The position numbers were made by a program, and so were the translations under genes. From Escherichia phage AV117: 64,000 bases of DNA. How positions within the stretch are numbered: position 1 is the first letter of the stretch; the number at the start of each line of letters is the position of its first letter. Below are positions 440 through 61,235 of the stretch, piece by piece. Under the pieces are notes generated by a model. It ran no database searches, was not told the DNA's origin, and worked only from the letters and a program-made list of their open reading frames with translations. The stretch lies in the sequence record OR352947.1. The stretch is one strand, 5' to 3'.

Positions 440-1072
440 TCACAGTACGTTAGTTACAAGGGTAATGATTTCTTTGGACACATTAGGGAAGTCAATGTAA
501 GTATATTTACCACCGATCTTAATCTTAACATCATTTTCAAGAGAAGTAAACAGCTTTGATTCAGTTTCTGACATGTTGTATGCAAAGATTCTAAGAGAGC
601 CATTTCGACGAATTTCAATCTGACGAATACCTAGAACTCGTTTTGCAAATCGAACTTCTAAGTTACTACGGTTTTCACCAATTTCTTTAACTTCAACTTT
701 ATCTTTAATATTTTCAAAAACAAAGTTTGCTAATTCATGCATTTCAGGAGTAACTCCACGTGCTTTTCTAGTGTTACGTTTCTGAAGAAGTTCTGGAGCA
801 TTTTCTTGGGCAAAGAGGTCTGCAGCTTTTTGGATAATATCCATTGCTTCGCCTGTTGCTATAAGTCCATCACCAGATTTTTCGACTAAACCTTTCTTAA
901 TCAATACACCAATGTTAGAGTTAACAACCGATGCATTGTATTCCGCTTCCAGAGCTTCACGGACATTGGCAGCAGTGGCGAAGTTGTTCTTAATGATATA
1001 AACCATTATTGCAGCAGTTTTTTCATTCAGAGCGTTTTCGGAAGCTTTGATGATGTAAGCAACTTTAGACAT
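440..1072 (-). CDS. motA: middle transcription activator MotA
   Basis: 210 aa; N-terminus MSKVAYIIKAS...NSNIGVLIKKGLVEKSGDGLI matches my recollection of T4 MotA (211 aa); early promoter and GGAG RBS upstream. Confidence 0.88.
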   Translation of the reverse strand: MSKVAYIIKASENALNEKTAAIMVYIIKNNFATAANVREALEAEYNASVVNSNIGVLIKKGLVEKSGDGLIATGEAMDIIQKAADLFAQENAPELLQKRNTRKARGVTPEMHELANFVFENIKDKVEVKEIGENRSNLEVRFAKRVLGIRQIEIRRNGSLRIFAYNMSETESKLFTSLENDVKIKIGGKYTYIDFPNVSKEIITLVTNVL

Positions 1073-1100
1073 TTTATTTCTCCAAATTAGTATTTGTTTT

Positions 1101-1140
1101 GATAGGTCTATAATATCATGTTTGAAGCAAAAGTAAACTT
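1101..1140 (-). promoter_or_regulatory. T4-type early promoter (GTTTAC-N17-TATTAT) upstream of motA
   Basis: minus-strand reading GTTTAC TTTTGCTTCAAACATGA TATTAT AGACCTATC; approximate coordinates. Confidence 0.6.
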
Positions 1141-1175
1141 TATTTTGGGCTCTTTTTCAAAAGCCCTGGTAAAAT

Positions 1176-1391
1176 TTACAAACTCATTTCTTTAATAAGG
1201 CTAATAAGTTTTGCCTTTTTAGAACGAAGCTTTTCTAAATGATGTCCATTTGAACCGCGAACCACTAAAGAATTGATTTCAACTTCTAAGAAATTTAATT
1301 CTTCAACGAGTGCTTTACGTGGAGCATTCATACCAGGTTTAACTTTACCGAAACGAGTAGTTGTGTTTTGGGTTAATTTCATTTTAGACAT
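1176..1391 (-). CDS. hypothetical small basic protein (71 aa)
   Basis: ORF with near-identical promoter/RBS cassette to motA (start MSK...). Confidence 0.45.
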   Translation of the reverse strand: MSKMKLTQNTTTRFGKVKPGMNAPRKALVEELNFLEVEINSLVVRGSNGHHLEKLRSKKAKLISLIKEMSL

Positions 1392-1421
1392 TTTATTTCT
1401 CCAATTTGGTTGTTTTGTTTT

Positions 1422-1460
1422 GATAGGTCTATAATATCATGTTTGAAGCACATGTAAACT
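1422..1460 (-). promoter_or_regulatory. T4-type early promoter, near-duplicate of the motA promoter
   Basis: gataggtctataatatcatgtttgaagca...gtaaac repeated about 320 bp from the first copy; approximate. Confidence 0.6.
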
Positions 1461-1484
1461 GTTTTGTGAGAAAAATGCACAAAA

Positions 1485-3245: not shown

Positions 3246-3692
3246 TTAGTAACTCTGCAGAATGAATTTGAAATTATCTGCCAGAAGACGGTTCATTTCA
3301 GTGAGTGTTTGATATTCTGATGTATGATTGCGAGTGAATGCCAGAGCCAATTGCCCTTTACCATAACCTGTAGTCAGGGGTTTCATGTTCTTAGCTGCAA
3401 CAAAGATTACATCATATTCAATATTGTTAGTGCCCATAGTACGGGCTAGTTGCGAACGGCCTTGACGAATGTGAGAAAGAATTGCGTCCAACCCTTGTTT
3501 AGAACGTTGACGTCCTACAAAGAATCGTGCTGCTACTTGTCGCCAATCAGATGAACCTTTAACAAAGAAGTAAAAACCTTCACGAGAACGAAACTCTTTA
3601 GAAACTTCAGAACCGTATTCGCCATTACGAACTACTGCAACAACTTCACCACCAACTGCCAGAAGGTCTTTACGAGTTAAATATTTGGACAT
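3246..3692 (-). CDS. ndd: nucleoid disruption protein Ndd
   Basis: 148 aa; C-terminal half (QRSKQG..ILSHIRQ.RSQLART...[40 protein letters not shown]) matches my recollection of T4 Ndd. Confidence 0.82.
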
Positions 3693-3730
3693 GCTAATTT
3701 CCTCAATTGATTAATGTTTTTGTAATCCAT

Positions 3731-3766
3731 GAGAGCATTATACTCTGCTCTCAAGAGTTTGTACAA
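3731..3766 (-). promoter_or_regulatory. early promoter (TGTACA-N17-TATAAT) inside the palindrome GAGAGCA...TGCTCTC, upstream of ndd
   Basis: gagagcattatactctgctctcaagagtttgtaca; a near-identical copy lies at 48558-48593. Confidence 0.55.
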
Positions 3767-3768
3767 TT

Positions 3769-3969
3769 TTATTCGGTTATATCAGAACGTTCAAAAAGCT
3801 CTTCAACAGTTAAACATTCTGTGTCATCCTCAATAAAGAATCGGGTCCAACACGTTGGGGCGATACAGTTATGAGTTTGTCCGGCGATAGAAGCTACACG
3901 AATAAGCTGCTGACCATTATTCAGAACAAATTTTTCACCAATTTCAACATCTTTAAAAAGCTTAGCCAT
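3769..3969 (-). CDS. hypothetical protein (66 aa)
   Basis: ORF; the ATG lies only about 10 nt downstream of the -10 element, so either leaderless or mis-started. Confidence 0.35.
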   Translation of the reverse strand: MAKLFKDVEIGEKFVLNNGQQLIRVASIAGQTHNCIAPTCWTRFFIEDDTECLTVEELFERSDITE

Positions 3970-3970
3970 T

Positions 3971-4009
3971 GATAGGACTACTATACCATAATCCTACCTT
4001 GATGTAAAC
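3971..4009 (-). promoter_or_regulatory. early promoter-like element with palindrome AGGACTA...TAGTCCT-like flanks
   Basis: GTTTAC-N18-TATAGT-AGTCCTATC on the minus strand. Confidence 0.45.
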
Positions 4010-4198
4010 AATTAAATTACATTAAAATATGTTAAAGCCAACCATGTTCCAGTGAACGAACATGCGATGTAAAAACCCGTATCACAAATTGTTCTTAGTA
4101 CAATAAGTGCATTTTTCATAAGTACCTCAATGCAATTGAAAATATTATACAAATCATAGGGATACTAAGCAACCATATTCCGATCCACATTTTAGAGC

Positions 4199-4479: not shown

Positions 4480-4518
4480 GATAGGACTACTATATCATAG
4501 TCCTACTTAGTTGTAAAC
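4480..4518 (-). promoter_or_regulatory. early promoter within the palindrome GGACTACTATATCATAGTCC
   Basis: GTTTAC-N18-TATAGT followed by AGTCCTATC then GAGGA RBS. Confidence 0.55.
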
Positions 4519-4530
4519 ACTTTTATGAAA

Positions 4531-5151
4531 TTAAAGTTGAAGATACCACCCGTTGTAGTTGCTCTTGCGGACGATTTTCTTTAGGTCTTCATGGTCTCCC
4601 ACGAACTTTATAGAATAAGAGAAGACGTCAGGTGAGGTTTCTTTGACATCTAATATAATAATGCAATCTGCGACTCTATGGTTCAAGAAGGGCCCTATAT
4701 TGATTCCATTACCACCCGGATAATCACCGCTGTATCCTGTGGTAACCGAAATCCATTTAGAATCTATCTGGTGTGTCTTGACTTCTACACGAATTCCACA
4801 ATACTTGGGGTGGGCCAACACGTCCCATGCATACGTGTACGGGTCTTCTACGTCTTCAATACCTTTATTAACATACCCGTCTAGCCAATTTGCTACTACA
4901 TACTCTGCAAAGACCGCAACCTTACAACGTCGAACTACATCTTCTTTGTTTTGGCCAGGATTTTGGCTCAGGGAATACCGAGCAGTGTCAGCAATCTTCA
5001 CCTTCATTTCACTAGTCAAAAACTCATTCGACAGGATAAATGTCGGAAGATTCTTCAGTCTCAACAGTCCCAAGTTCGTCTTTACCATAGATACCTCTGA
5101 TGTGTAGTTCGCCAAAATAAATGCGGTCACCTTCTTCAAGATATTCTGCAT
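4531..5151 (-). CDS. hypothetical protein, possible DenB-position nuclease
   Basis: 206 aa in the T4 denB map position; weak D...EVK pattern reminiscent of PD-(D/E)xK; true start probably internal. Confidence 0.35.
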   Translation of the reverse strand: MQNILKKVTAFILANYTSEVSMVKTNLGLLRLKNLPTFILSNEFLTSEMKVKIADTARYSLSQNPGQNKEDVVRRCKVAVFAEYVVANWLDGYVNKGIEDVEDPYTYAWDVLAHPKYCGIRVEVKTHQIDSKWISVTTGYSGDYPGGNGINIGPFLNHRVADCIIILDVKETSPDVFSYSIKFVGDHEDLKKIVRKSNYNGWYLQL

Positions 5152-12890: not shown

Positions 12891-13144
12891 TAAGTTGTAC
12901 CATTTTCAGTGATTTCACGGAAGATGCCATAGATAGGCATTTCGTCACCGAGTTTTTCGTAAACGTAAACCACTTCGGTGTAGCATAAAAATTCGGTCCA
13001 GTTTTTCTGTACAACAACTAAATCAGGATTAAACAGAACATCTTCAAACTCATCGATGTTTGAATCAGTAGTTACGTTTTTAATGATTTGACGTTTCATA
13101 ATATTCTCCTCTTGTTTTGATAGGTCTATAGTATCATAGACCAT
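12872..13144 (-). CDS. hypothetical protein (real start probably internal at about 13099)
   Basis: the track start lies upstream of the promoter TSS; internal MKRQ start has a GAGGAG RBS. Confidence 0.45.
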
Positions 13145-13156
13145 AGTTGTTGTACA
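13119..13156 (-). promoter_or_regulatory. early promoter within the palindrome GGTCTAT...ATAGACC
   Basis: TGTACA-N17-TACTAT-AGACCTATC on the minus strand. Confidence 0.5.
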
Positions 13157-13681
13157 TCATTTTAGCAAAATAAAATCAACTTGTTCTGACAATGAACGTC
13201 TAAACATTAATTGACAACTTCCGAGGATGAAATCAGGTGCTTCATAGACCGCGATGTAGTATCCTTTAGCTTTCAAGAGTTCAACATCCACCTGGTCATC
13301 AAACCATGCATAAACCGCGTCAACACTTTCAAATCCAAAATATAACCCTTTAGCCCAATCTTCACTCAATTCAAATGAGTGGTCAATTCTATAGTATCTT
13401 AAGATATTTTGTTCAAGGAGTTTGTCTTCATTTACTGTAGGACGATTAGGGACATTATAGTTGTCGCCGTGATGGTAGAAGTTACCTGAGAGTATTCCAT
13501 GCTTATCAAGGAACTCCCATGTTTCTTCAGAGTTGTCGGTGCCCGACCAACCGTATGGCGAACGAGGTTCTTTATTCCAAGAGGTTTCCCAAATTCTGAC
13601 GGCTTTACCATCTTCGATAGCAATTCCTGGTAATGATTCACGTTGAGTACAAAAACTACGTTCTACGCGGTAAACTAACAT
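13157..13681 (-). CDS. hypothetical protein (174 aa)
   Basis: ORF with upstream promoter. Confidence 0.5.
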   Translation of the reverse strand: MLVYRVERSFCTQRESLPGIAIEDGKAVRIWETSWNKEPRSPYGWSGTDNSEETWEFLDKHGILSGNFYHHGDNYNVPNRPTVNEDKLLEQNILRYYRIDHSFELSEDWAKGLYFGFESVDAVYAWFDDQVDVELLKAKGYYIAVYEAPDFILGSCQLMFRRSLSEQVDFILLK

Positions 13682-13699
13682 ATTATTCTCCTCTGGTTG

Positions 13700-13736
13700 A
13701 TATGGTTATAATATCAAAACCAGAGGAGAAGTAAAC
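13700..13736 (-). promoter_or_regulatory. early promoter with -10 element in the loop of the 9-bp inverted repeat CCTCTGGTT/AACCAGAGG
   Basis: GTTTAC-N17-TATTAT on the minus strand; the inverted repeat also contains the GAGGAG RBS. Confidence 0.55.
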
Positions 13737-13740
13737 AACT

Positions 13741-14160
13741 TTATGCAAAAGATGCTGGACAATATTTTTTGATTTGGAACTCAGGAACTACCATGAACTG
13801 TCCAGCGAAAACGATGTTATAAAGCTTAACACCATCTTCTACCCATTGGTCCGAAATAAAACCAGCAACTTGATTCGTTGTCCATGGAGACCCGTCAGTT
13901 GCAGAAGCAATAGTAAATTCATGGTCTTTTACAACTAAAACAGACCTGCACAGTTTCCATTTGAACGCACGTTCTTCTGGTTCAATGAATTGGCTTTTAA
14001 CATAACCAATGTTACCATCGGCGTCACGAACTTTAACTTCGTTACGTCCAAAAACCGGATCACTCACGTAAAGAACTTCAACCAACTTCCCGGCAACTTT
14101 AGAGCGAGAAGCAACAGATACATATACGTAATCACCTGTAGAGAGATTTACAATATTCAT
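13741..14160 (-). CDS. hypothetical protein, paralog family member A
   Basis: shares ASRSKVAGKLVEV and C-terminal DQWVEDG.KLYNIVF.G.F.VV with the next two ORFs. Confidence 0.55.
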   Translation of the reverse strand: MNIVNLSTGDYVYVSVASRSKVAGKLVEVLYVSDPVFGRNEVKVRDADGNIGYVKSQFIEPEERAFKWKLCRSVLVVKDHEFTIASATDGSPWTTNQVAGFISDQWVEDGVKLYNIVFAGQFMVVPEFQIKKYCPASFA

Positions 14161-14169
14161 AATAATTCC

Positions 14170-14688
14170 TTAAGCTTTAAGAGGAGACACATAGCGAGTG
14201 ATTTCAGATTCTTTAACAACTCGGAAGTCACCTAAGAATACGATATTGTATAGCTTTTCACCATCTTCAACCCATTGGTCGCTAATGAAGCCACACATGA
14301 TATCAGTTGTGCTTGGATAACCGTATTCGTCGATGTAATCAAATTCTTTATCGGTTATAAATTCAACGCCTTTGCAAAGAGCCCATTTGAACTGTACATT
14401 AGGTTCAGTAGAAGCAAAATGAGCGCTCACACGAGTTTCCAGGAATTTAGGACTTACGTAAGCGTACTGAGTATCCTGACGTCCAAAACTAGGAATGATT
14501 CGAACTTTAACTTCTTTAATGCGTCCCATGCCATTTGTGCGAAGTCCGACAACTTCAACCAGACGACCTGCGGCTTTAGACCGGGATGCAGTTGATACAC
14601 GCTTAATTTCACCAATAGTAATCATAATTTCTCTCTCTTTGTTTAAATTGAATTCACTATACTCCATCCATCCTTGGATGTACAACAT
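14170..14688 (-). CDS. hypothetical protein, paralog family member B (start probably internal MITIGEIK)
   Basis: ASRSKAAGRLVEV and DQWVEDGEKLYNIVFLGDF motifs; the track start overlaps the promoter. Confidence 0.55.
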   Translation of the reverse strand: MLYIQGWMEYSEFNLNKEREIMITIGEIKRVSTASRSKAAGRLVEVVGLRTNGMGRIKEVKVRIIPSFGRQDTQYAYVSPKFLETRVSAHFASTEPNVQFKWALCKGVEFITDKEFDYIDEYGYPSTTDIMCGFISDQWVEDGEKLYNIVFLGDFRVVKESEITRYVSPLKA

Positions 14689-15224
14689 TAATTAAGGATA
14701 TTAACTACTGCACTACGTGGAACCACACTAAAATCACCGGCATGAACAACGTTCAGAAGTTCAACACCGTCTTCAATCCATTGGTCAGTTACCCATCCAT
14801 TTACTGGACCATCGAATGGGCGTCGAATTGAAACATATTTACACAATAAATCAGTAGGCTCAATAGGCTTAATCAGAGTACCGTACATACAAACGATATC
14901 CATATCAAAGTGGAGACCATCTTTAACAGGTGCTTCTTCAATCAAGAGTTCAAAGTCGGTGCTTGGAAGGGCGGTAGTAGAAATTGTACCGTATAAATTT
15001 TTAATTTCTAAGAATAACCAAGGGCCTTCAACTTGTTTAATGAAGTTAACAATAGTGAAACTATTACCTTGAGTGGCGCCTAAAATTTCACAAAACTTTT
15101 CGTAAGCTCGCACTGAAGCACCGTACCAATTGATTTGTTTTTCGTCTTTCAGGATGTAAGTAGCCGTAGTATTGATATTCATAATGTTTTCCCGTTTGGT
15201 TAAGATAGAAAGATTATACTCCAA
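14688..15224 (-). CDS. hypothetical protein, paralog family member C (start probably internal)
   Basis: C-terminal TDQWIEDGVELLNVVHAGDFSVV; more diverged N-terminus. Confidence 0.5.
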   Translation of the reverse strand: MEYNLSILTKRENIMNINTTATYILKDEKQINWYGASVRAYEKFCEILGATQGNSFTIVNFIKQVEGPWLFLEIKNLYGTISTTALPSTDFELLIEEAPVKDGLHFDMDIVCMYGTLIKPIEPTDLLCKYVSIRRPFDGPVNGWVTDQWIEDGVELLNVVHAGDFSVVPRSAVVNILN

Positions 15225-15242
15225 CCGTCCTTGGTTGTAAAC
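15205..15242 (-). promoter_or_regulatory. early promoter; repeat family TATACTCCAACCxTCCTTGGTTGTAAAC
   Basis: GTTTAC-N18-TATAAT; near-identical copy at 57055-57094 and a third variant at 58045-58086. Confidence 0.5.
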
Positions 15243-15246
15243 TGTT

Positions 15247-15939
15247 TTATCGCTGTTTTACACTTAACGGGTCAGGATTCTCAGGGACATCTTCAAGGCC
15301 AAGCGCATAACGCTGAGCATATTTTAACATCAAAATATCTTTAGCACAATCATGAATACTATCATGGGCAACGAATCCTTTTAGCGTACCCATCGGTAAT
15401 GGACACATACTTAATCCTCGTGTCAACGAGTAAGCTTCGATTGCCGTACGAATATCGCGTTGAGCCCAGAATTTAACCGGTTCTAATTTATCAGTATCAA
15501 TATCCGGTTCAAGAACACCTTCATCACGATAGAGGTCACGAATCAAATCGACCAAGATCGGGAAGTCAAAGCTCATACCACGGCACCACATCTGTGATTT
15601 CCATTGGTCAACTTTATTAGCTCGGCAATAGTCTAAAAAGATTTTAATGCCTTCAAGCGTAGTGACATCGTCTTCAGACGGAGCCAAGTTTTTACGTGCT
15701 TCAGCCGATTGTTCTTTCCACCATTTCATAGTGGATTTAGCAAAAACTCGCTTCCCTTTCTGAGAAGCCAAATTAAATTTAATTCGCTTACCTCGTTGAA
15801 CAAGTTCTTCAAATGATTCAACAACTTCAGGGTCGGAATTATATGCAATAACCGCAAGGTCAATAACAGCCGCTTTTGATGTATTGCCGAATGTTTCAAA
15901 ATCTATAATAACATCAGTGCTCATAATTTTCTCTCTCAA
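15247..15939 (-). CDS. dexA: exonuclease A (DexA, DnaQ-like 3'-5' exonuclease)
   Basis: 230 aa; N-terminal VIIDFETFG exo I motif; map position upstream of dda as in T4. Confidence 0.8.
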   Translation of the reverse strand: MREKIMSTDVIIDFETFGNTSKAAVIDLAVIAYNSDPEVVESFEELVQRGKRIKFNLASQKGKRVFAKSTMKWWKEQSAEARKNLAPSEDDVTTLEGIKIFLDYCRANKVDQWKSQMWCRGMSFDFPILVDLIRDLYRDEGVLEPDIDTDKLEPVKFWAQRDIRTAIEAYSLTRGLSMCPLPMGTLKGFVAHDSIHDCAKDILMLKYAQRYALGLEDVPENPDPLSVKQR

Positions 15940-17249
15940 ATAAAATGGACGTCAAACCGACCACGAGTTGTGCCGACATACAATAACTGTTTAGCTAATT
16001 CTGAATCGGCATAATGGATACACGGTGTATAAACAAAGGCCGTGTCAACAGACATACCCTGGGCCTTATGGAAGGTTGATACTGGTAGTGCCTTCACCTT
16101 AGTGAACATACGTTTAGCATCCCAGAATTCGCTCCATGGAGCTTTACCACCTTTATTCCAAAATTTGTATGTTTCTGCGGTCTTAGCCAAAAACAAATTG
16201 AATTTATAAAGCTCTTCTTCAGAAGAAATAACCTTTATATCTTCGCGGATGTATTCTTCATCATCCCCATATGTTTCTACTGTAAGATTCCAGTATCGTA
16301 TCATATATTCGCCTGAAACACCACGTGCTTTAACGAATGTAGACGTTTCTACAGCATCTCGAATACGAACGAATTGGCCGTTATTGAAAAGCATTTCGGT
16401 CATATTTTTACCATCTAGCTTATATGTCTTAGTAAATGGCTCCTGTAGAACAATGACTTCGTCTTTAATAAATGGTTTTTCTGTTTCAAGAAGTTTTCGG
16501 CGAATAATTGAATTTAGCTTGTCCACCGACTTATTTGTGAATGCCATCATTCGATTTTCGAAAAGGTCTTCAGGAGTTTTAACGACGTTAAAATAGTTCA
16601 TCATATACGATTTAAGGTCTGTATATCCATGAACACCGTGCCCATCAACTACTTTATCGTAAATCCATTTGCCGTTACGAATATCAGTCGCAACATCAAT
16701 AATTGGTGCATTGCTACGTTTAACTTCCGTAAGGTTGCATTGCACGAAGTCTTTGTGAGTGAAGAAAGGACTTAGATACGCAGTTGATTCGCCTGGGTCT
16801 ACCGGACGAATCTGGCATCGGTCGCCGATGCCAATTACTGTACACCATTTAGGGATACTAGCTAACATTATTTTAAACAGAGAACGGTCGCACATTGACG
16901 CTTCATCAAATAACAGTACACGGCACAAGGCTAAGTCGGGGACCTTTTTCTGTTCAAACAATACGTTTTCTTCGTATGTAGTTGGGTTGATTTTAAGAAT
17001 GCTATGAATAGTCGATGCTTCTTGACCTGCAAGTTTGCTTAGAACCTTTTTAGCGGCATGTGTAGGGGCTGCTAAAATAATACCTGATTCTCCAGAAGAA
17101 ATAAGGGCTTCAACGATGAATCTAGTAAGGGTTGTTTTACCTGTACCAGCAGGCCCATTAATAGTTACATGATGTTTCTTTTCTTTAATAGCGTTCATAA
17201 CAACGTTGAAGGCGTTTTTCTGGCCTTCAGTCAAATCATCAAATGTCAT
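15936..17249 (-). CDS. dda: Dda DNA helicase (SF1)
   Basis: 437 aa; Walker A GPAGTGKTT, SF1 motifs; length and N-terminus MTFDDLTEGQKNAF as recalled for T4 Dda. Confidence 0.92.
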   Translation of the reverse strand: MTFDDLTEGQKNAFNVVMNAIKEKKHHVTINGPAGTGKTTLTRFIVEALISSGESGIILAAPTHAAKKVLSKLAGQEASTIHSILKINPTTYEENVLFEQKKVPDLALCRVLLFDEASMCDRSLFKIMLASIPKWCTVIGIGDRCQIRPVDPGESTAYLSPFFTHKDFVQCNLTEVKRSNAPIIDVATDIRNGKWIYDKVVDGHGVHGYTDLKSYMMNYFNVVKTPEDLFENRMMAFTNKSVDKLNSIIRRKLLETEKPFIKDEVIVLQEPFTKTYKLDGKNMTEMLFNNGQFVRIRDAVETSTFVKARGVSGEYMIRYWNLTVETYGDDEEYIREDIKVISSEEELYKFNLFLAKTAETYKFWNKGGKAPWSEFWDAKRMFTKVKALPVSTFHKAQGMSVDTAFVYTPCIHYADSELAKQLLYVGTTRGRFDVHFI

Positions 17250-18306: not shown

Positions 18307-18346
18307 AATATTTTCCTCTGTCTTACGGACGTTAGGTCATTTAGCT

Positions 18347-18384
18347 GATAGGTCTATAATATCATGCCCTCAGGTAGTGTACAC
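18347..18384 (-). promoter_or_regulatory. early promoter
   Basis: GTGTAC-N17-TATTAT-AGACCTATC. Confidence 0.5.
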
Positions 18385-18458
18385 TCTTTTTTCGTAAAAT
18401 GCTTTAATTTTTTATGTGTTATAATGGTTCTGAGTTCCATCTGGTTATTCCAATCCAG

Positions 18459-19124: not shown

Positions 19125-19706
19125 CTAAAAATTCAACATTTTCAAATGAATGATTTTGTATAATCGAGATAAAGGGTCATATTCTAAGTCTTCAATTTCC
19201 ACAATCTCAAATCTAGAGATACCTGAGACCATGTACTCTTGTTCAGATTCAATCATATCTAGGACATCGATACGAGTTTCTTCCATAACATGCTTAGGGT
19301 TTTTTCCGGCAAGTACAATGTTAATCATGTTTTGGTAGTAATCAAAAATGAATGGAGCATTCCTGAGACTAAGAATAGTGTACGTCTGATATTCCCAGCT
19401 CCCGGAGAATTGACGAGCTGTACTGAAATCAGTTGTGAACGATGTTACTCGTCCAGGAGACCAATGACATCCAACAGAAAGAAGGGAAAGTCGTTCTACT
19501 TCTTCCGGAGTTACACCGCGGTAGAGTTCTACTGGTACTGTAGAAGTCATATGCTTACGAACAAGATGGTCTAATTCATAGTGGAAATCCGGGTCTTCCT
19601 TAGAATCGGTGCAAGCCCAGAGAATATTTTGTTCTTGGCGGGTGAATTTGCTATCAATCAGATTTGTTAGGTATTCACGTTCTTGAAGTTCAGATTGACA
19701 TGTCAT
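19125..19706 (-). CDS. modB: ADP-ribosyltransferase, ModB-like
   Basis: 193 aa; LYRGV, SFTTDFSTA, SEQEYMV elements of an R-S-E ADP-ribosyltransferase. Confidence 0.65.
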   Translation of the reverse strand: MTCQSELQEREYLTNLIDSKFTRQEQNILWACTDSKEDPDFHYELDHLVRKHMTSTVPVELYRGVTPEEVERLSLLSVGCHWSPGRVTSFTTDFSTARQFSGSWEYQTYTILSLRNAPFIFDYYQNMINIVLAGKNPKHVMEETRIDVLDMIESEQEYMVSGISRFEIVEIEDLEYDPLSRLYKIIHLKMLNF

Positions 19707-21531: not shown

Positions 21532-21562
21532 AATTAACTCCTTTGTTGTTTAATTACAGGTG

Positions 21563-21570
21563 TATTTATA
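21563..21570 (-). promoter_or_regulatory. T4 late promoter TATAAATA upstream of soc
   Basis: tatttata on the plus strand (TATAAATA on the coding strand) about 32 nt before the soc ATG. Confidence 0.65.
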
Positions 21571-21577
21571 TCAGTAA

Positions 21578-22114
21578 TCAGTAACCATTATCCTGGCGTT
21601 CAAAGTTGTGTTGGTTTTTCAAGTAGTAAAGTTTAAAGATTTCTTCAGCGGAAAGACCAAGACCTTGGAACATATTCAGAACAAAGTGCAGAATATCAAT
21701 CATCTCGAATTTAATTTCGAGCTGGTCTTCAGGAGACAGTTCATCGATACGACGATTTCGATATTCAGCATGTTGAGCTTTCCAAGGCTTCCATACAGAG
21801 CTAGCGGCTTTTTCACCATTGCTCATACCACCGAGTGAAGTCAACAGTTCACGGAATTCATCATCAATATAATCTTTCTGATTACGCAGCCAATCAACAA
21901 CATCGCCAGCAGTGGCCAATTCGTCAGGATGTTTGTTATGTTCAGGCTTATCATTTGCCAGACGAATCTGTAAAGATTTCTGCATATCAAGCATTACCTG
22001 CAGAGGGTCTTTATCTTCATGAATCAGAGCATTAAAATAAGCTTCTTCTGCTTTATCAACACCAGAAATAAGTTGTGAACATTCGTTAAAGTGCGCCATT
22101 ATTTTTCCTTTCAA
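21578..22114 (-). CDS. 56: dCTPase/dUTPase (gp56, MazG-like dCTP pyrophosphatase)
   Basis: start probably MAHFNEC (as in T4 gp56); DKDPLQVMLDMQ...LANDK and C-terminal EIFKLYYLKN blocks match my recollection of T4 gp56. Confidence 0.88.
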   Translation of the reverse strand: MKGKIMAHFNECSQLISGVDKAEEAYFNALIHEDKDPLQVMLDMQKSLQIRLANDKPEHNKHPDELATAGDVVDWLRNQKDYIDDEFRELLTSLGGMSNGEKAASSVWKPWKAQHAEYRNRRIDELSPEDQLEIKFEMIDILHFVLNMFQGLGLSAEEIFKLYYLKNQHNFERQDNGY

Positions 22115-25077: not shown

Positions 25078-25140
25078 TTTAACTCCTTAGTTGATTTGAT
25101 AGGACTACTATACTATAGTCCATCTATAATGTAAACAAGT

Positions 25141-26092: not shown

Positions 26093-26093
26093 A

Positions 26094-26306: not shown

Positions 26307-26599
26307 TCAGCGTGATAAACTGTAGCACCTTTAGTATCATTCATTTGAACTACATCTACCGGAGAAATTACTCGATAGAGACGTGGTTCACCTCCATAAG
26401 AGCGTGCTGCTCGTCCTGCATAAATCTTTGCTAAACCGATATCTTCAGTAAAGAATACCCGATCCAAGTTTTTCTTACGTCCTGTTTCAGACAGAACTCC
26501 TGTTTCTTCAGGAGGACAAAGCATGTTTTCGATGTTAGCTGAACTACTTGAACCGTGATAAAAAATCTTAAATTCTGCTTTACAATCGATGGTTTTCAT
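26282..26599 (-). CDS. hypothetical protein (105 aa)
   Basis: ORF with GGAGAA RBS and promoter upstream. Confidence 0.45.
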   Translation of the reverse strand: MKTIDCKAEFKIFYHGSSSSANIENMLCPPEETGVLSETGRKKNLDRVFFTEDIGLAKIYAGRAARSYGGEPRLYRVISPVDVVQMNDTKGATVYHAEWAFCEEI

Positions 26600-26607
26600 T
26601 TTGTTCT

Positions 26608-26654
26608 CCAGTAGTTGATAGGTCTATAATAACACAACTACTGGAGAAGTAAAC
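26608..26654 (-). promoter_or_regulatory. early promoter with -10 element flanked by the 10-bp inverted repeat CCAGTAGTTG/CAACTACTGG
   Basis: GTTTAC-N17-TATTAT-AGACCTATC; the first 30 nt are duplicated at 59682-59711. Confidence 0.55.
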
Positions 26655-27029
26655 TTAAAAACGTAATTTAGATACATCTGCGTTGATTTCGCTTTGGTTT
26701 GCGTCGTATGCAATTAAACGAACAGCTTTAGATGGGTCATTCAATGCATAGAAATGATGGAACATTGCTCGAACGATATCACCATTTACGAGTTCTACCT
26801 GGATAGGAGAACCTTTTTCGAGTTGGAAATGTTCATAAGCTTTGATGGTTCGCAGATAATCAAGTTTTTGATTTCCGGCTCCAACAATTTGTACAATACG
26901 TTTGCCCATGTTTTCCATACGAGATACAATAGTTTTAGGAGCAAGAATAACGTAGGTTGCCAGCGGAGAAACTACTTCAACAGTTGTGTTTTCGGTGATT
27001 GCAGTAAAAATTGCTTGAGACATATTCAT
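26655..27029 (-). CDS. hypothetical protein (124 aa)
   Basis: ORF. Confidence 0.5.
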   Translation of the reverse strand: MNMSQAIFTAITENTTVEVVSPLATYVILAPKTIVSRMENMGKRIVQIVGAGNQKLDYLRTIKAYEHFQLEKGSPIQVELVNGDIVRAMFHHFYALNDPSKAVRLIAYDANQSEINADVSKLRF

Positions 27030-27054
27030 AATGTTTTCCTCTTGGTTTGTGTAA

Positions 27055-27088
27055 GTACATCATATCATGCCTAGAGGAAGATGTAAAC
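27055..27088 (-). promoter_or_regulatory. early promoter directly downstream of the gene 41 terminator
   Basis: GTTTAC-N18-TATGAT. Confidence 0.5.
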
Positions 27089-27093
27089 CCCGA

Positions 27094-27111
27094 AAGGAGA
27101 CCGAAGTCTCC
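27094..27111 (-). terminator. UUCG-tetraloop hairpin after gene 41
   Basis: aggagac-cgaa-gtctcct; a T-run follows on the plus strand and a weaker U-tract on the minus. Confidence 0.5.
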
Positions 27112-27117
27112 TTTTTG

Positions 27118-42855: not shown

Positions 42856-42897
42856 TTAATTTGATGTGGTCATTATAACCACATCGTGTTAAAGCGT

Positions 42898-48197: not shown

Positions 48198-48565
48198 TTT
48201 ACCGCCTTAACAATTTTCAGGTCAACGAATTTTTTCTTACGTTGATTTTTCATACGACGGATAGTCTTTTCAGAGATTTCATGTTTCTGATAAGCTTTAG
48301 ATTCAACACCAAATGCAGCAACGTCAAATTCAGAAAGAATATATTGTACTAGAATTTCACGAATAGAATTACGTCCAATTTTCTGGTCGTGTTTTTGCAT
48401 GATTTCATAAAGACGGAATTCCCATGCGTCAAGGACTTGAGGAGTAACAATATTGCCGGATTCCAGAAGAGCAACAACTTTATCGAAAGCGAAAGAATTA
48501 ACTACGTTTTTGATTTTAGTAGACATATTATTTTCCTCGGTTATTTTATTATCCAATGAGAGCAT
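48194..48565 (-). CDS. hypothetical protein (real start probably internal MSTKIKN at about 48526)
   Basis: the track start overlaps the -10 of the duplicated promoter; internal start has a GAGGAAAA RBS. Confidence 0.45.
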   Translation of the reverse strand: MLSLDNKITEENNMSTKIKNVVNSFAFDKVVALLESGNIVTPQVLDAWEFRLYEIMQKHDQKIGRNSIREILVQYILSEFDVAAFGVESKAYQKHEISEKTIRRMKNQRKKKFVDLKIVKAVK

Positions 48566-48593
48566 TATACTCTGCTCTCAAGAGTTTGTGCAT
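48558..48593 (-). promoter_or_regulatory. early promoter, near-identical duplicate of the ndd promoter
   Basis: gagagcattatactctgctctcaagagtttgtgca, 1 mismatch over about 35 nt versus 3731-3766. Confidence 0.55.
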
Positions 48594-48832
48594 TATTCCG
48601 TGATAAGATAATGTAAATAGTTTGCTTGACGAACACTGATATCAACACCCATATCAAAGATACCTTTATAGAACGGGTATTTGTTTTCAGTAGAATCTAG
48701 ACTAAAAGCCTTTCCACCACAACTAACGGTAATAGCATCAGTTAAAGTGTCATATACAAACTTAATAGTTGAGCCATTCACTACGACTTCAAGACGTTTT
48801 TTCGATGTAATAACGTCTAATTCTTGTTCCAT
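48593..48832 (-). CDS. hypothetical protein (79 aa)
   Basis: ORF. Confidence 0.45.
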   Translation of the reverse strand: MEQELDVITSKKRLEVVVNGSTIKFVYDTLTDAITVSCGGKAFSLDSTENKYPFYKGIFDMGVDISVRQANYLHYLITE

Positions 48833-48895
48833 GATATTTTCCTCATTTTAAGACGATAGGAAGATAATAACACGTCTTCCTATCGTTGTACATTA

Positions 48896-49108
48896 TTAAC
48901 CGAACTTTTTAGCGCCTTTCCAGCCTTCATACATAGCTGCACAAGTCAGTAGTACAGCGTGCTGGCATTCTTTGTATTTGTAAATCCAGAACCAACGTAA
49001 AAAGTCTTCGTCCTCAACGCCGTTGAGTTTCATATTGGCAAAGAATTCGGCACGTTCTTCACGAAGTTGCCATGACACAATATTTTCAGGATTCATTTTG
49101 TGTTCCAC
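48896..49108 (-). CDS. hypothetical protein (70 aa)
   Basis: ORF. Confidence 0.45.
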   Translation of the reverse strand: MEHKMNPENIVSWQLREERAEFFANMKLNGVEDEDFLRWFWIYKYKECQHAVLLTCAAMYEGWKGAKKFG

Positions 49109-56092: not shown

Positions 56093-57036
56093 TATAAAAC
56101 CTCAATGGCATTTCGTAAACCATCAGCTTTTGCATTCAGAGCTTTTAATGATTTAGTTTGTTCTGCAATCTGGGCTTCGACTTCTTTCAGGCGAGATTTG
56201 AGATATTCGCGTTCTTCTCTTAAGTTATCAACTTTTTCTGCTTTAGGCTCTTTAATAGGCTTATACTCGTTAGGGTTCTTCAACTTAATTTGAATGCGAG
56301 AACTGTATAACATTGAACCATTATCTTCGGTTTCATCATACATTTCTACCACGTCCATGATTCTTAACATCATGCGAAGTTTATAAGACAGCGAACGAAT
56401 GGTTTTGTTGTGCTTATTAATTTCTTCGGCTTTCATGGTACCGAGATTACGTGAGTAGTAATAAGGAACCTGGATATCAATTGATAATGATGCGGTACCA
56501 TTACCTGTTGGTTTGAACACTGCAGTAACCCAATCTTTAGCATGAACTGTATTTGTACGATCATCGCCACCTGTGAATAATTTACGTGAATGTTTAAAAA
56601 GCATATTCACTTGGTTATTGAATTCACAAGCAAATTTATCAGCAAATTTAGTTTCAGGAATGGTAGTTAACCAATCAGCCAAATGAGTCTTTTTAACATC
56701 ATTAACAATAGTGAATTCAACCAAATCGGTTTTAGATGTCACAGATTTAATAAAGCTCGGCTTCATAAAGTTTTTAATGTTATCGCGAGCTACAGTAGAA
56801 GATAATAAACGAGAACGTTTGAACCATTGAAGCAGTGTCCCTAATGAATGAGAATACGCATTCTGAGTATCTTTACAGATATGATTTTCTTGGCCTGTGT
56901 ATGTACCAAAATCGCGAAGAATACCACTTACTACATCTCGGTGTGGAACATCAAATCCTAGTGCACCAGTAGCGCGCTGAGCATGAACGTTAGCGATAAG
57001 ACCTGCAAAATAATCAATGTAATGTGAACGTGTCAT
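56092..57036 (-). CDS. hypothetical protein with C-terminal coiled coil (314 aa)
   Basis: C-terminal heptad-like LREEREYLKSRLKEVEAQIAEQTKSLKALNAKADGLRNAIEVL. Confidence 0.5.
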   Translation of the reverse strand: MTRSHYIDYFAGLIANVHAQRATGALGFDVPHRDVVSGILRDFGTYTGQENHICKDTQNAYSHSLGTLLQWFKRSRLLSSTVARDNIKNFMKPSFIKSVTSKTDLVEFTIVNDVKKTHLADWLTTIPETKFADKFACEFNNQVNMLFKHSRKLFTGGDDRTNTVHAKDWVTAVFKPTGNGTASLSIDIQVPYYYSRNLGTMKAEEINKHNKTIRSLSYKLRMMLRIMDVVEMYDETEDNGSMLYSSRIQIKLKNPNEYKPIKEPKAEKVDNLREEREYLKSRLKEVEAQIAEQTKSLKALNAKADGLRNAIEVL

Positions 57037-57054
57037 AATATTTTCCTCTCGTTA

Positions 57055-57094
57055 AGATAGAAAGATTATACTCCAACCATCCTTGGTTGTAAAC
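57055..57094 (-). promoter_or_regulatory. early promoter, near-identical duplicate of the 15205-15242 element
   Basis: gttaagatagaaagattatactccaaccatccttggttgtaaactg. Confidence 0.5.
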
Positions 57095-57098
57095 TGAT

Positions 57099-58031
57099 TT
57101 ATGATTTTAATGCATTCATTGCGTTAAAAAGTTTAGAGTACTGCAACTGGAGCTTGGTAACTACTTGTTGAGCATCACGAAGCTTAGCTTGTGCTTTGTC
57201 AAGTTCAACAGACAGTTGGTCCGCAGTGGCTTTGATTTGATTATAATAGTAATCTTCGGCAGGAAGAAGACCGTTAGAGATTTCCAGTTTAGTCGACGGT
57301 GTGCCATTAAACATAACAGGTTGTGCTGAAGCCGCATTAATCTTACCGATAGTCGGGGCGACAATAATTGACGCTTCGAACGTTGCATTTTCCTTTTTAA
57401 GATTTTTATAATATTCAGAGTCTTTGTGCCACCATGGCGCAGGAACCTTTTTACCAATAGATACACGAGCCTGGATAGCGATATGGCCCTTATTCTTGAT
57501 AACGTCGATAATATTAAGCTCACGAGAATAAATTGCTTTAATCTGGTAAATATTATCACCTAACACTTCCAACGCTTGGTGGAATACACGAGCAACGTTA
57601 TCATTCTTAGGTTTATACGTAAGAGTGAACTCGTTCTCACTGATAACCATGATTTCTAACTTATCGTAAGTATATTTCAAATGTTTCATGTTAATTGCTT
57701 GAGGACGAATACGAGAAGCAATGGCCATCAGATTGTTAAGGTTATTTCTGAACTGTTTAGCAAAATATTGTCCTTCACCGCCAATACAAAAATTACGAAG
57801 TTTCTGTTTGGCTAATAAACGACTGAACTCGCCATTTTTAATGAACTCTTTAACTGGTGTGTTAGTAACGCATTCAAATTGAGTAAACTTACGAGAAGTA
57901 ATCCCATAATATGAACAGATTTCCTCAATCTCTTCAGGAGTCTTTACAGGCATACGGATAGGATTAGGTCCTGGGGTATATGCGTTCGAGGTAAATTCTT
58001 TGATAAGTTCTCTACGTGTAATAAAAGCCAT
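57099..58031 (-). CDS. hypothetical protein with C-terminal coiled coil (310 aa)
   Basis: C-terminal ADQLSVELDKAQAKLRDAQQVVTKLQLQYSKLFNAMNALKS. Confidence 0.5.
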   Translation of the reverse strand: MAFITRRELIKEFTSNAYTPGPNPIRMPVKTPEEIEEICSYYGITSRKFTQFECVTNTPVKEFIKNGEFSRLLAKQKLRNFCIGGEGQYFAKQFRNNLNNLMAIASRIRPQAINMKHLKYTYDKLEIMVISENEFTLTYKPKNDNVARVFHQALEVLGDNIYQIKAIYSRELNIIDVIKNKGHIAIQARVSIGKKVPAPWWHKDSEYYKNLKKENATFEASIIVAPTIGKINAASAQPVMFNGTPSTKLEISNGLLPAEDYYYNQIKATADQLSVELDKAQAKLRDAQQVVTKLQLQYSKLFNAMNALKS

Positions 58032-58044
58032 TTTATATTCCTCA

Positions 58045-58086
58045 TGTTGAAAAATTTATTATACTCCAACCATCCCTGGTTGTACA
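58045..58086 (-). promoter_or_regulatory. early promoter, third member of the TATACTCCAACC repeat family
   Basis: TGTACA-N17-TATAAT then GAGGAA RBS. Confidence 0.5.
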
Positions 58087-59082
58087 TCATTCCTTAAGAA
58101 GTTTTACTACTTGAATAAGATTAGCTCGTTCCGTTTTATTTTTACCATTTAAGCCTGCTAATCGTGAGATTTCATCATCAGTCTGTTGAATAGTTACATT
58201 AAGTTCGTTAATCAAAGCTTCAAAGTATTTGATTTGCTCAGCATGTTTTGATTCAAATTTCTGAACCGGAATAACGTCTTGGTTCAGTTCATCAATAAGG
58301 TCTTTAAGAGCATCTTCTTGGTTGATATCATATTCAACTTCTTTTATTTCTTCAACGAGCTCGTCTTTATATCTAACGTCTTTTAGTCCTGGTGCTGGTC
58401 CTGAAATCTCTTCTTTAAGAGTACAAACATATCCAATACGGTATCCAATGCCGTCTCGCTTGATATCAACTTCGTCAATAAATCCACAATGTTTAAGACC
58501 AGAGCCGATTAGGTCAAAATATCCTTGACGTCGTCCTTCAAACGTTACACGAACTACTAAGACAGTTTTACCTGCAACCTTTTGAAGCTCACATTTATAA
58601 AAGTTTGTTGAACCTGAATACCGTGGATGAGTTTTAAAGTTCATCTGACGATCTAGGCCCATTTGTAAGCGTGCTGATACGGCCATAAAACGTGTTTGGT
58701 TCTCGTTAAGATGAGCAACAATCCATTTCAAAGGCATTTTACACTGTTCACGACCGAACAAATCAGTACGTCCTAGATTACGCAGAATGTTGTTAGAGTT
58801 AATCATCGACAGAACGTTAAGTTTATTCAGCGCGCTGAAGATTCCATCAGCCATTGATTTTCCGTAACCTTTACACGCTTTAATAAGCGCTCGCGGTAGA
58901 TTAGTATAAATTTCAGACGGCATATGAAAATCAAATTTACTAGTCAGTAATTGATGAACTTGGATAGCAATTTGCTCATAATTAAGTGCTCTGCGATCAT
59001 TATGGTCTTTAAACCACACTTTAATCTGTGAAGCACATAAACCGTTAATTTCATGTTTTACCGCATCAGATGTAATGCTCAT
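58087..59082 (-). CDS. hypothetical protein with C-terminal coiled coil (331 aa)
   Basis: C-terminal heptad-like region after residue 240. Confidence 0.5.
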   Translation of the reverse strand: MSITSDAVKHEINGLCASQIKVWFKDHNDRRALNYEQIAIQVHQLLTSKFDFHMPSEIYTNLPRALIKACKGYGKSMADGIFSALNKLNVLSMINSNNILRNLGRTDLFGREQCKMPLKWIVAHLNENQTRFMAVSARLQMGLDRQMNFKTHPRYSGSTNFYKCELQKVAGKTVLVVRVTFEGRRQGYFDLIGSGLKHCGFIDEVDIKRDGIGYRIGYVCTLKEEISGPAPGLKDVRYKDELVEEIKEVEYDINQEDALKDLIDELNQDVIPVQKFESKHAEQIKYFEALINELNVTIQQTDDEISRLAGLNGKNKTERANLIQVVKLLKE

Positions 59083-59144: not shown

Positions 59145-59672
59145 TTATGCGTGAACCGTCTTTAAACGTTCTTCAAATTTCCGAAGAGTACTAATACGTT
59201 CTGCTTTCTGTTTTGTATAGTTTGCAATACGTTCTGAAGTGAGAGCGTATCGTTCATTTACTGTTTCTTTCATGAAGTCAGGGATTTCACGAGAAGCTTT
59301 AATTTCATCAAACTTATCGAGTACTGCCTGGTCTTCAGCGATTAAATTTTCGTACATCTCGATATCTTTCTTGATAAACTCGATATCTTCCTGGGTTACT
59401 TTGGATAAACGAGATGCTTTATCCTTTTTGTACTGCTCGTTAGTTTCACGAGACCAGAATAATGTACGTTTTTTGTTAGTGTTTTTGTAGACTTCCACAA
59501 TTCCAACTGAATCGATGATAGCAATCCAATTCCAGCGAGATTTGAAAATCTGACCTCCGTCTACGGTAATCTCGTTACCATAAGCAACGTCATTAAAGAA
59601 CTTGCTTTGTGCTTCAGATTTAAATTTACCGTCGTTATAATTTACCAGGTTGAAAATATCTTTAGCGTTCAT
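59145..59672 (-). CDS. hypothetical protein (175 aa)
   Basis: predicted helical/coiled-coil C-terminal half. Confidence 0.5.
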   Translation of the reverse strand: MNAKDIFNLVNYNDGKFKSEAQSKFFNDVAYGNEITVDGGQIFKSRWNWIAIIDSVGIVEVYKNTNKKRTLFWSRETNEQYKKDKASRLSKVTQEDIEFIKKDIEMYENLIAEDQAVLDKFDEIKASREIPDFMKETVNERYALTSERIANYTKQKAERISTLRKFEERLKTVHA

Positions 59673-59681
59673 GTTTTACCT

Positions 59682-59728
59682 CCAGTAGTTGATAGGTCTA
59701 TAATAACATAACCATAGACCTTGTAAAC
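59682..59728 (-). promoter_or_regulatory. early promoter, partial duplicate of the 26608-26654 element
   Basis: ccagtagttgataggtctataataaca shared; GTTTAC-N17-TATTAT. Confidence 0.5.
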
Positions 59729-59730
59729 AA

Positions 59731-60018
59731 CTAAAAGAAACTTTTTTCGGTATTTTTTCCACTGAACCAAACCGATTTCGGAATTTTCTGTAATTTTTCA
59801 GATTTAAGTTTCTCTTCCTGTTCTTTCTTATATGCATCCTTGTCGTACTGGAACAACTCTAGGGCATTCTTTTGCAAACGATCTAAGGTAATTAAGGCTT
59901 TAGTTTTTCCTTTCAAGGAAGAGTCCTGGCGAACCTCCTCGCTGTATTGCATCGTAGAACTAACCATACGATGAGCATACAGTTCGACTGCGGCTTTAAT
60001 TTTTTGCATAAAATCCAT
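59731..60018 (-). CDS. hypothetical protein (95 aa)
   Basis: ORF. Confidence 0.4.
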   Translation of the reverse strand: MDFMQKIKAAVELYAHRMVSSTMQYSEEVRQDSSLKGKTKALITLDRLQKNALELFQYDKDAYKKEQEEKLKSEKLQKIPKSVWFSGKNTEKSFF

Positions 60019-61158: not shown

Positions 61159-61164
61159 TTCGTT

Positions 61165-61205: not shown

Positions 61206-61235
61206 ACTTTTTTAAAAATATTTTAACCCCCTAAA

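Follow-up and report, generated by a model that had tools for sequence, protein, structure and literature searches.

The sequences that recur almost unchanged at distant places in the window, by which we mean the whole stretch of 64,000 nucleotides analysed from Escherichia phage AV117 (OR352947.1), are very probably cassettes that carry the early promoters of a T4-like phage and belong to a published kind, the PeSLs (promoter-early stem-loops). PeSLs were defined in RB49/phi1 and linked to indels (Arbiol 2010, PMC2839356), and were extended to PST/T4 and nt-1/KVP40 (Comeau 2014, PMC4122927); the ndd neighbourhood, where one of the repeats studied here lies, is a PeSL example in T4/PST (PMC4122927). 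For "probably all" T4-like phages PeSLs have only been predicted, and RB69 and Mosigvirus are named in neither paper (PMC2839356, PMC4122927). The original prediction, made from the sequence of the window, took the repeats for promoter and ribosome-binding cassettes that had been shuffled by short-homology recombination or were held by strong selection. This was right in kind, but it overlooked the stem-loops and did not identify the elements as PeSLs.

Over its first 8 kb, which carry motA, ndd, rIIB and rIIA, the window shares 97.7% identity with Mosigvirus PNJ-6, and 95–98% with HX01, ST0, JS09 and other RB69-like phages (genus Mosigvirus). By sequence identity it is thus an RB69-like phage of this genus. 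The gene order, as given by the annotation of PNJ-6 and O157 typing phage 6, is that of a T4-like early/middle region, spanning motA, ndd, rIIB/rIIA, dda, modA and genes 41, 43 and 55, up to the nrdC cluster. The minus strand carries nearly all of the genes, and the elements must therefore be read on that strand.

Repeats within the window

The four pairs of repeats that had been picked out in the original prediction proved to be the four longest exact repeats of the window (37, 34, 29 and 28 nt) when all maximal repeats were listed. The ndd element at 3731–3766 matches 48558–48593 at 34 of 36 positions, within an exact run of 34 nt (3729–3762, identical to 48556–48589). The motA cassette is duplicated as claimed, with 50 of 55 positions identical between 1093–1147 and 1414–1468 (spacing 321, exact run 37 nt); the part comprising its ribosome-binding site and ATGTCTAAA is repeated exactly over 22 nt at a spacing of 319 (1064–1085 and 1383–1404). 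The segment 26608–26637 matches 59682–59711 at 29 of 30 positions, with an exact run of 29 nt. The copy of 15205–15242 lies at 57057–57094, the coordinate given for it in the original prediction having been off by 2; the two are identical at 37 of 38 positions and contain exact runs of 28 and 17 nt. The third variant of this element, near 58044–58095, is also present, at 65% identity over 52 nt and with an exact 18-nt core (57065–57082, identical to 58058–58075). Two further families were found that had not been listed: GATAGGACTACTATA at 3971, 4480, 25098 and 63859 (and 13119), and GATAGGTCTATAATA at 1101, 1422, 18347, 26617, 59691 and 61167.

Repetition on this scale is well above chance. 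There are 57 exact repeats of at least 20 nt in the window, as against none in order-2 Markov simulations of it, and 73 of 18 nt, as against 0.3 expected from the same simulations. It is also above what a shared promoter consensus gives. When 26 cassettes were aligned on the -10 and the -10 hexamer was left out, the mean identity over all 325 pairs was 0.44 (sd 0.11), compared with 0.87 for the 15.2k/57.06k pair, 0.85 for the motA tandem, 0.83 for ndd/48.5k and 0.74 for 26.6k/59.7k. An assembly artefact was considered as the source of the repeats and is ruled out, because the same cassettes recur in many independently sequenced genomes.

Layout of the cassettes and promoter assignment

We catalogued 26 intergenic cassettes on the minus strand, all with one layout; those discussed below are given in Table 1 together with the genes between them. 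Read along the minus strand, AT-rich DNA is followed by GTTTACA or TGTACA, by 16–17 nt and by a TATAAT-like hexamer. Then there is often an nnnnCTATC motif, which from its place probably surrounds the transcription start, and a leader of 10–49 nt with a Shine–Dalgarno sequence (SD) leads to the ATG. The cassettes lie between genes, each just ahead of the SD and ATG of a gene that is often small or unknown; this position is that of PeSLs, as judged from the cassettes themselves and from the annotation of relatives.

Table 1. Cassettes and cassette-bounded genes in the window
Feature	Positions	Strand	Remarks
motA early-promoter cassette	1064..1147	-	-35 1132-1137, -10 1110-1115, leader, SD, ATG 1070-1072; upstream of 210-aa MotA ORF
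71-aa ORF between tandem motA cassettes, variable unit	1176..1391	-	
Second motA-type cassette	1383..1468	-	-35 1453-1458, -10 1431-1436; preceded by terminator hairpin GGGAGCTTCGGCTCCC at 1484-1501
ndd cassette	3690..3770	-	-35 3760-3765, -10 3737-3742; stem-loop GAGAGCA/TGCTCTC 3731-3752 encloses -10; z = -3.2
Reference copy of TAGGAyTA...TAGTCCTA family	3971..4026	-	copies 4480-4535, 25098-25153, 63859-63914; more distant 13119-13174
13.7k cassette	13679..13751	-	9-bp stem CCTCTGGTT/AACCAGAGG over SD; z = -7.3; bounds 941-bp unit 13735-14677
14.66k cassette, CAxCCAaggaTGGxTG spacer-hairpin family	14623..14693	-	compensatory stem variant
164-aa gene between 14.66k and 15.2k cassettes, variable unit	14688..15182	-	
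15.2k cassette	15180..15250	-	perfect TTTACA-N17-TATAAT; spacer hairpin; 37/38 identical to 57.06k copy
Member of TATTATAGACCTATC family	18339..18393	-	another copy 61159-61213
26.6k cassette	26597..26669	-	12-bp stem CTCCAGTAGTTG/CAACTACTGGAG; -10 in loop, 3' arm over SD; z = -5.8
124-aa ORF with cassette, variable unit	26655..27115	-	-10 27059-27064; terminator GGAGACTTCGGTCTCC directly upstream of -35
48.5k cassette, ndd family	48524..48597	-	upstream of 110-aa gp55.2-like ORF; stem-loop 48558-48579; z = -2.9
79-aa ORF (RB69ORF075c-like) with own cassette, variable unit	48593..48900	-	-10 48864-48869; 9-bp stem GATAGGAAG/CTTCCTATC
57.06k cassette, twin of 15.2k	57034..57102	-	upstream of 314-aa nrdC.3-like gene
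310-aa nrdC.5-like gene between 57.06k and 58.06k cassettes, variable unit	57099..58031	-	
58.06k cassette, third member of 15.2k/57.06k family	58029..58095	-	TGTACA -35
59.7k cassette	59670..59743	-	29 nt (-10 to SD) common to 26.6k; different 5' arm (AGGTCTAT/ATAGACCT)

On sequence evidence, all 26 carry a sigma-70-type early promoter with AT-rich upstream DNA, and in their repeated copies they are conserved well beyond the hexamers; both are features of PeSLs. From sequence and position we predict that the cassettes are active as T4-type early promoters. The early promoters of T4 have an extended consensus of UP element, -35, TGn and -10, conserved beyond the -35 and -10 themselves (Hinton 2010, PMC2988021). 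They share with the cassettes the hexamers, the spacing, the frequent TG before the -10 and the AT-rich upstream DNA, and they too stand before early genes, which in the window are motA, ndd and genes of the modA region. That account is one of recognition by RNA polymerase; it does not extend to the spacers and leaders that are specific to each family, to the stem-loops or to a role in recombination.

A generic sigma-70 scan was set aside as evidence for promoters. In DNA this AT-rich the total number of matches was not above that in shuffled sequence (58 and 68, compared with 63.6 and 70.2 in shuffles), and only the top minus-strand matches are informative: the best matches (at least 10 of 12 positions) number 21 on the minus strand and 6 on the plus strand, and many of the cassettes are among them.

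Stem-loops and their covariation

Most cassettes contain an inverted repeat, placed either so that the -10 lies in the loop or within the spacer. The stem TAGGACTA/TAGTCCTA is that of the 4.49k cassette, and the cassettes at 3.98k, 25.1k and 63.9k have variants of it. The stem CAACCA/TGGTTG is present at both 57.06k and 58.06k; the 15.2k stem differs from it in one pair, and the 14.66k stem is a compensatory variant. With z-scores derived from mononucleotide shuffles, 13 of the 26 cassettes have a hairpin at z < -2, as do 11% of random 64-nt segments (Mann–Whitney p = 6e-4). A stable stem-loop in or next to the promoter, as in PeSLs, is therefore found here both by this count and by the covariation of the stem shared by the ndd and 48.5k cassettes.

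That stem was aligned in 11 distinct copies, taken from the window, four Mosigviruses, Dhakavirus and IMG/VR contigs. Pairing is retained in 96.6% of cells, and three of the eight pairs show compensatory changes, giving the variants GAGAGCA/TGCTCTC, GGGAGTA/TACTCCC and GGGACCA/TGGTCCC. The observed covariation score was attained in none of 500 shuffles, and every slid register fails. Single compensatory changes were also seen in the 26.6k stem (A-T to G-C in O157tp6) and in the 13.7k stem (G-C to A-T in ESCO47). Judged by the changes in the ndd/48.5k stem, which support the earlier suggestion of selection on the full element, the stem is a selected feature. The ndd/48.5k stem tolerates G-U pairs on the sense strand, and a G-U pair is a C-A mismatch on the opposite strand; the tolerance therefore favours a structure in RNA or in a single DNA strand over a binding site for a protein on duplex DNA. 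A search of the window against Rfam 15 gave no matches at the gathering score.

Possible roles of the stem

The PeSL papers propose that the stem terminates or attenuates transcription (PMC2839356). Among the cassette stems examined, none has a U-tract on its 3' side on the sense strand. Intrinsic terminators are expected to carry such a tract, and a role of the embedded stems as intrinsic terminators is thus not supported; the "terminator" half of the PeSL definition probably does not apply to them, and terminator activity is doubtful. GC-rich terminators with tetraloops do occur, as separate elements that precede only some of the cassettes (at 1484–1501 and just upstream of the -35 at 27.06k).

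The stem probably works in RNA that reads through from upstream, and the transcript from the cassette's own promoter would be without the 5' arm. This arrangement has a precedent in the T4 genes e, soc, 49 and I-TevI, in which hairpins sequester the ribosome-binding site and only the proximal transcript is translatable (Uzan and Miller 2010, PMC3014915). It might be, then, that the stems serve mainly to block the SD or start codon in read-through RNA, each gene being translated from the transcript of its own promoter. We consider this doubtful, with perhaps one chance in several. The predicted accessibility of the initiation region is indeed lower in read-through RNA than in the own transcript (0.51 and 0.74 respectively, Wilcoxon p = 4e-7), the difference exceeding 0.35 in seven cassettes (for example 13708, 26626, 19734 and 57065), and four cassettes lie at or below 5% of shuffled controls for read-through accessibility. 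Over the 26 cassettes, however, shuffling the upstream half gave 0.54 as against 0.51 (p = 0.27), and SD occlusion is therefore not general. Moreover, in nine cassettes, among them ndd and 48.5k, the stem is self-contained and does not involve the SD. It follows that translational gating is a property of a subset and not of the family, and occlusion was rejected as the general role of the stem. In the folding predictions it clearly fits four to seven cassettes, including 26.6k, 13.7k, 19.7k and 57.06k. These have the T4 arrangement, with the 5' arm upstream of the proximal start and the 3' arm over the SD or AUG. They differ from it in that the proximal promoter is late in T4 and early here, and most cassettes of the window, unlike the T4 hairpins, leave the SD unoccluded.

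It is very improbable that the inverted repeats are operators, conserved because a dimeric phage or host protein binds around the -10 and switches the early promoters off. The repeats do overlap the -10, a typical position for an operator; the shut-off of early promoters is described as not completely understood (PMC3014915); and in one GenBank record a possible protein-binding site is marked at a repeat in 56.6–58.6k, where the 57.06k and 58.06k cassettes lie. Against this, the stems differ completely between families (GAGAGCA, TAGGACTA, CTCCAGTAGTTG, CAACCA and GATAGGAAG), so that there is no common recognition sequence, and what orthologues retain is the pairing, with G-U tolerated, and not the sequence.

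Variable genes and hybrid cassettes

The syntenic regions of PNJ-6, O157tp6, ESCO47 and Dhakavirus dhabil were each compared with the window. ESCO47 is a Mosigvirus that is about 77–95% identical to the window over aligned blocks. The comparison of orthologous loci, a check that had been proposed with the original prediction, found that cassette boundaries do coincide with gene gain and loss: six cassette-bounded units vary among relatives. Five of the six leave behind one hybrid cassette, with the crossover between the -35 and the SD, and the sixth (48589–48886) has a short repeat on both sides, at the -35. Together with two gene replacements, these units place cassettes at the borders of indels and replacements among close relatives, as is the case for PeSLs.

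The unit at the motA locus (1148–1468, with the 71-aa ORF) amounts to about 320 bp and is missing in about half of the Mosigvirus records. O157tp6 and ESCO47 have a single cassette at this locus, in which the upstream part of the distal copy is fused to motA at the shared TTGGAGAAATAAAATGTCTAAA. The unit 57091–58058, with the 310-aa nrdC.5-like gene, is missing in ESCO47, G2469 and FL18; the cassette that remains consists of the 58.06k -35 and the 57.06k leader, with the crossover inside a shared core of 24 nt. AV115 and PTK are missing the 557-bp unit between 14.66k and 15.2k (164-aa gene), and at the AV115 junction the 14.66k leader is joined to the 15.2k promoter at the -10. The unit 13735–14677, which holds two motB-like genes, is missing in ESCO47, with the junction at the -35. 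The unit 26634–27082 (124-aa ORF) is missing in ESCO47, SQ17 and Mizar. Its junction lies between the -35 and -10 in ESCO47 and at the SD in SQ17, and since these junctions differ, we conclude that the unit was lost twice independently. Finally, the unit 48589–48886 (79-aa ORF) is missing in ESCO47, AV109 and AV116; its flanking cassettes belong to different families, and only AATAATG(T/C)ACAA at the -35 flanks the unit on both sides.

In the replacements, at 15.2k (in ESCO47) and at 49.99k, the upstream gene and GTTTACA are kept, and divergence sets in with the base that follows. In ESCO47 the gene at the 21.2k locus is the same, but the -10 and leader before it come from another cassette family. 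The 48.5k core is replaced by a GGGCTTCGGCCC terminator, with the downstream GGATAATAAAAT kept, in a group that we label Tequatrovirus-like solely from its protein identity of about 75%.

The single hybrid cassettes found where the window has two around a gene are what supports the idea of recombination put forward in the original prediction. We do not use the enrichment of breakpoints as an argument. Ten of the 36 ESCO47 breakpoints fall inside cassette spans, which make up 1.8% of the window; this is very strong against a uniform null, but weak against an intergenic-only null, because whole-gene indels must end in intergenic DNA, much of which is probably taken up by cassettes. The case for recombination at cassettes therefore rests on the hybrid junctions. 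Not all indels are cassette-mediated: 19159–19663 (PNJ-6) is a microhomology deletion inside a modB-like gene, 25900–26104 falls at a 70-aa ORF (25880–26092) that has no cassette of its own, and there are homing-endonuclease insertions in relatives.

Age and maintenance of the pairs

It had been suggested that the repeats reflect either recent promoter shuffling or selection. Recombination and selection both apply; "recent" does not hold for the flagged pairs, of which two are also found in Dhakavirus and a third has its ndd core shared by ESCO47, and the evidence from these comparisons points to pairs that are old and have been maintained. The sister genus Dhakavirus also has the tandem motA pair, including an ORF between the copies, and the duplication therefore predates the split of Dhakavirus and Mosigvirus. 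Within a genome the two copies have been homogenised. In Dhakavirus L081 both read TTC (TTTACTTC) and in L082 both read TTA (TTTACTTA); all Dhakavirus tandem copies have TTTAAA and TACTAT, where the window has TTCAAA and TATTAT in both of its copies. Such homogenisation, as seen in these sequences, is the mark left by gene conversion or by unequal crossing-over. When the 71-aa ORF was used to scan viral contigs of IMG/VR, only two Dhakavirus loci came back, which give a hint of concerted evolution and are too few for a tree.

The similarity of 26.6k and 59.7k is likewise found in dhabil, where it is the 59.7k copy that bears the CTCCAGTAG stem. At ndd the situation differs: the dhabil core is unlike the 48.5k type, and all Mosigviruses examined, including the divergent ESCO47, have the 48.5k-type core. 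The latter is ancestral at its own locus, because it is present there in Dhakavirus. From this distribution the ndd core seems to derive from a single transfer, made after the split of the genera and before the radiation of Mosigvirus. At the 57k locus there is a block allele, CTTT or GAAT, right after the -10, and each form matches a different member of the family; mosaic alleles of this kind suggest gene conversion between distant pairs.

These observations bear on the view that the repeats arose by convergence, through selection for the long T4 early-promoter consensus (UP element, -35, TGn, -10 and start region) and with no exchange of DNA between loci. T4 early promoters share a consensus that extends beyond the -35 and -10 (PMC2988021), GTTTACA and a TATAAT-like -10 are found in all 26 cassettes, often with CTATC, and background identity is already 0.44; even so, we give convergence very little chance, because the flagged pairs are identical at spacer and leader positions that are free to differ between families and that covary within stems, their exact runs of 28–37 nt go far beyond the consensus, and, as a sole explanation, it is already contradicted by the sequences of the hybrid cassettes at deletion junctions and of the tandem copies that carry the same substitution within a genome.

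Discussion

The reading that we prefer is that the repeats are PeSL-type early-promoter cassettes. Like PeSLs, they are repeated, lie between genes and unite a sigma-70-type early promoter, with AT-rich DNA before it, and a stem-loop with the SD and start codon; the stem is mostly between the -35 and -10 or over the -10. They border small variable genes and bound indels between close relatives, and recombination between tandem copies deletes the gene between them. The -35 is GTTTACA, as in the PeSLs of PST/T4. They differ from the published PeSLs in the genus and in the stems: the stems of RB49/phi1 PeSLs are polyG/polyC and those of the window are AT-rich to mixed and family-specific, and the embedded stems here have no U-tracts. 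Strong promoter activity in vivo and the formation of mini-circles are further traits of PeSLs, studied in PMC2839356 with reporter assays and outward-facing PCR.

Host sigma-70 RNA polymerase probably fires at the cassettes immediately after infection. As the cassettes share 20–55 nt and sit between genes, they can act as portable homology for recombination. A crossover inside them would delete, insert or swap a single gene unit, with one functional hybrid promoter as the outcome, and gene conversion between copies may hold some pairs near-identical. Arbiol et al. compared PeSLs with Botstein–Campbell linkers and with integron-like gene cassettes (PMC2839356). In those systems, as probably here, conserved boundaries target the exchange of single genes and bring expression signals with them. 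Integrons have a dedicated integrase and an attC-type site, neither of which is found here, and exchange presumably proceeds by the general recombination system of the phage.

We think it rather unlikely, though less so than convergence or operators, that cassette exchange is targeted and not a by-product of general homologous recombination. Clues in this direction are that junctions cluster between the -35 and the SD, that two replacements diverge right after GTTTACA, and that one gene was lost at least twice, with different junctions. The signal could lie in the selected stem-loops, for example if they extrude as hairpins and endonuclease VII cuts them, or if they form R-loops at very strong promoters and so start recombination-dependent replication. 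If exchange were targeted, ongoing ectopic conversion would keep ndd/48.5k and 15.2k/57k identical, and these phages would carry an integron-like system without an integrase.

Compared with what we drew from the PeSL papers, the present analysis adds the covariation of the stems, the concerted evolution of the tandem pair and, for the loss of one gene, two junctions that arose independently. The added value is a clean set of junctions, with the signals of stem covariation and concerted evolution; a specialist would not be surprised by the result. Covariation, G-U tolerance and concerted evolution provide testable handles on the role of the stem and on targeting, which are questions left by the PeSL papers, and about 150 sequenced Mosigvirus genomes can be used for a test at the level of populations.

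The repeats, including the "direct repeats" that annotation pipelines see in RB69-like phages, are thus explained as part of the ordinary biology of this phage group, and the PeSL picture is extended to the RB69-like genus. For therapeutic or typing phages of the Mosigvirus group, this picture predicts which of the small genes are gained and lost.

Sequence variation at the 57k cassette

Within the family of early-promoter cassettes that share a spacer hairpin, the 57k locus was found in two allelic forms. The four bases directly after its -10 element are CTTT in the window and in RB69, and GAAT in the Mosigvirus genomes PNJ-6 and O157tp6 (O157 typing phage 6). The first allele is that of the 15.2k cassette and the second that of the 14.66k cassette, a pattern which, on sequence comparison, looks like that of short tracts converted from one member of the family to another.

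Coordinates in the window of the features compared among genomes
Feature	Position	Strand	Context or comparison
Bases after -10, 57k locus	57058-57064	(-)	Compared with 15206-15212 and 14649-14655
70-aa ORF	25880-26092	(-)	Genome comparison
Further sites of basic-tail sequence	53873-53927; 54477-54531		
Deletion in PNJ-6	19159-19663	(-)	Inside 193-aa modB-like ADP-ribosyltransferase gene
Cassette with shortened leader	3969-3990	(-)	Before 66-aa ORF at 3769-3969

The GenBank record of phage ATK47 (KT184309) carries the annotation 'direct repeat sequence1 posible binding site of StbAB', placed at some point within the part of that record which matches window 56600-58560, a segment containing the 57.06k and 58.06k cassettes. 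This site is an annotator's guess, and is made unnecessary by the reading of the cassettes as promoter-early stem-loops (PeSL).

Insertions, deletions and other repeats

PNJ-6 lacks 503 bp of the modB-like gene, with the microhomology ACAAA(T)C at the junction; this deletion is not cassette-mediated. Both PNJ-6 and O157tp6 have an extra 330-390 bp at window 21560-21615, where a pair of small ORFs follows their dCTPase gene, and there is no cassette within 300 nt of this site. Two homing-endonuclease insertions are likewise missing from the window: one of approximately 1.05 kb inside nrdD of PNJ-6 (site 52812-52817), and one of approximately 0.8 kb adjoining gene 46 in the divergent genome ESCO47 (site 42835-42909).

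The repeat listing of the window also includes an exact 20-nt repeat in coding DNA (17130-17149 and 41248-41267), whose copies sit in the dda helicase gene and in a clamp-loader (gene 44-like) gene. Judging from the sequence by eye, we take it to encode the Walker A motif. The repeat is a coding coincidence, with no relation to the cassettes.

The 70-aa ORF is present in the window and PNJ-6 and missing in O157tp6 and ESCO47. Its C-terminal tail is basic (VRPTKRQIRQEKRKF), and similar tails are found in two more small ORFs of the window (TRPTKRMIRQYKRF and VRPTKRQLRKAKRS). The three look like a small paralogous family.

A shortened leader

Compared with its relatives, the cassette before the 66-aa ORF has a leader from which approximately 18 nt have been lost, the Shine-Dalgarno sequence among them. 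The leader reads ...CTATCAATG in the window and ...CTATCAAAA(C/T)ATGAGGAA(T/C)ACAAAATG in PNJ-6 and ESCO47; that of O157tp6 is equally full-length, with a variant start (...CTACTGAAACATGAGGAACACAAAATG). As predicted from its sequence, the mRNA of the 66-aa ORF in the window would be nearly leaderless.
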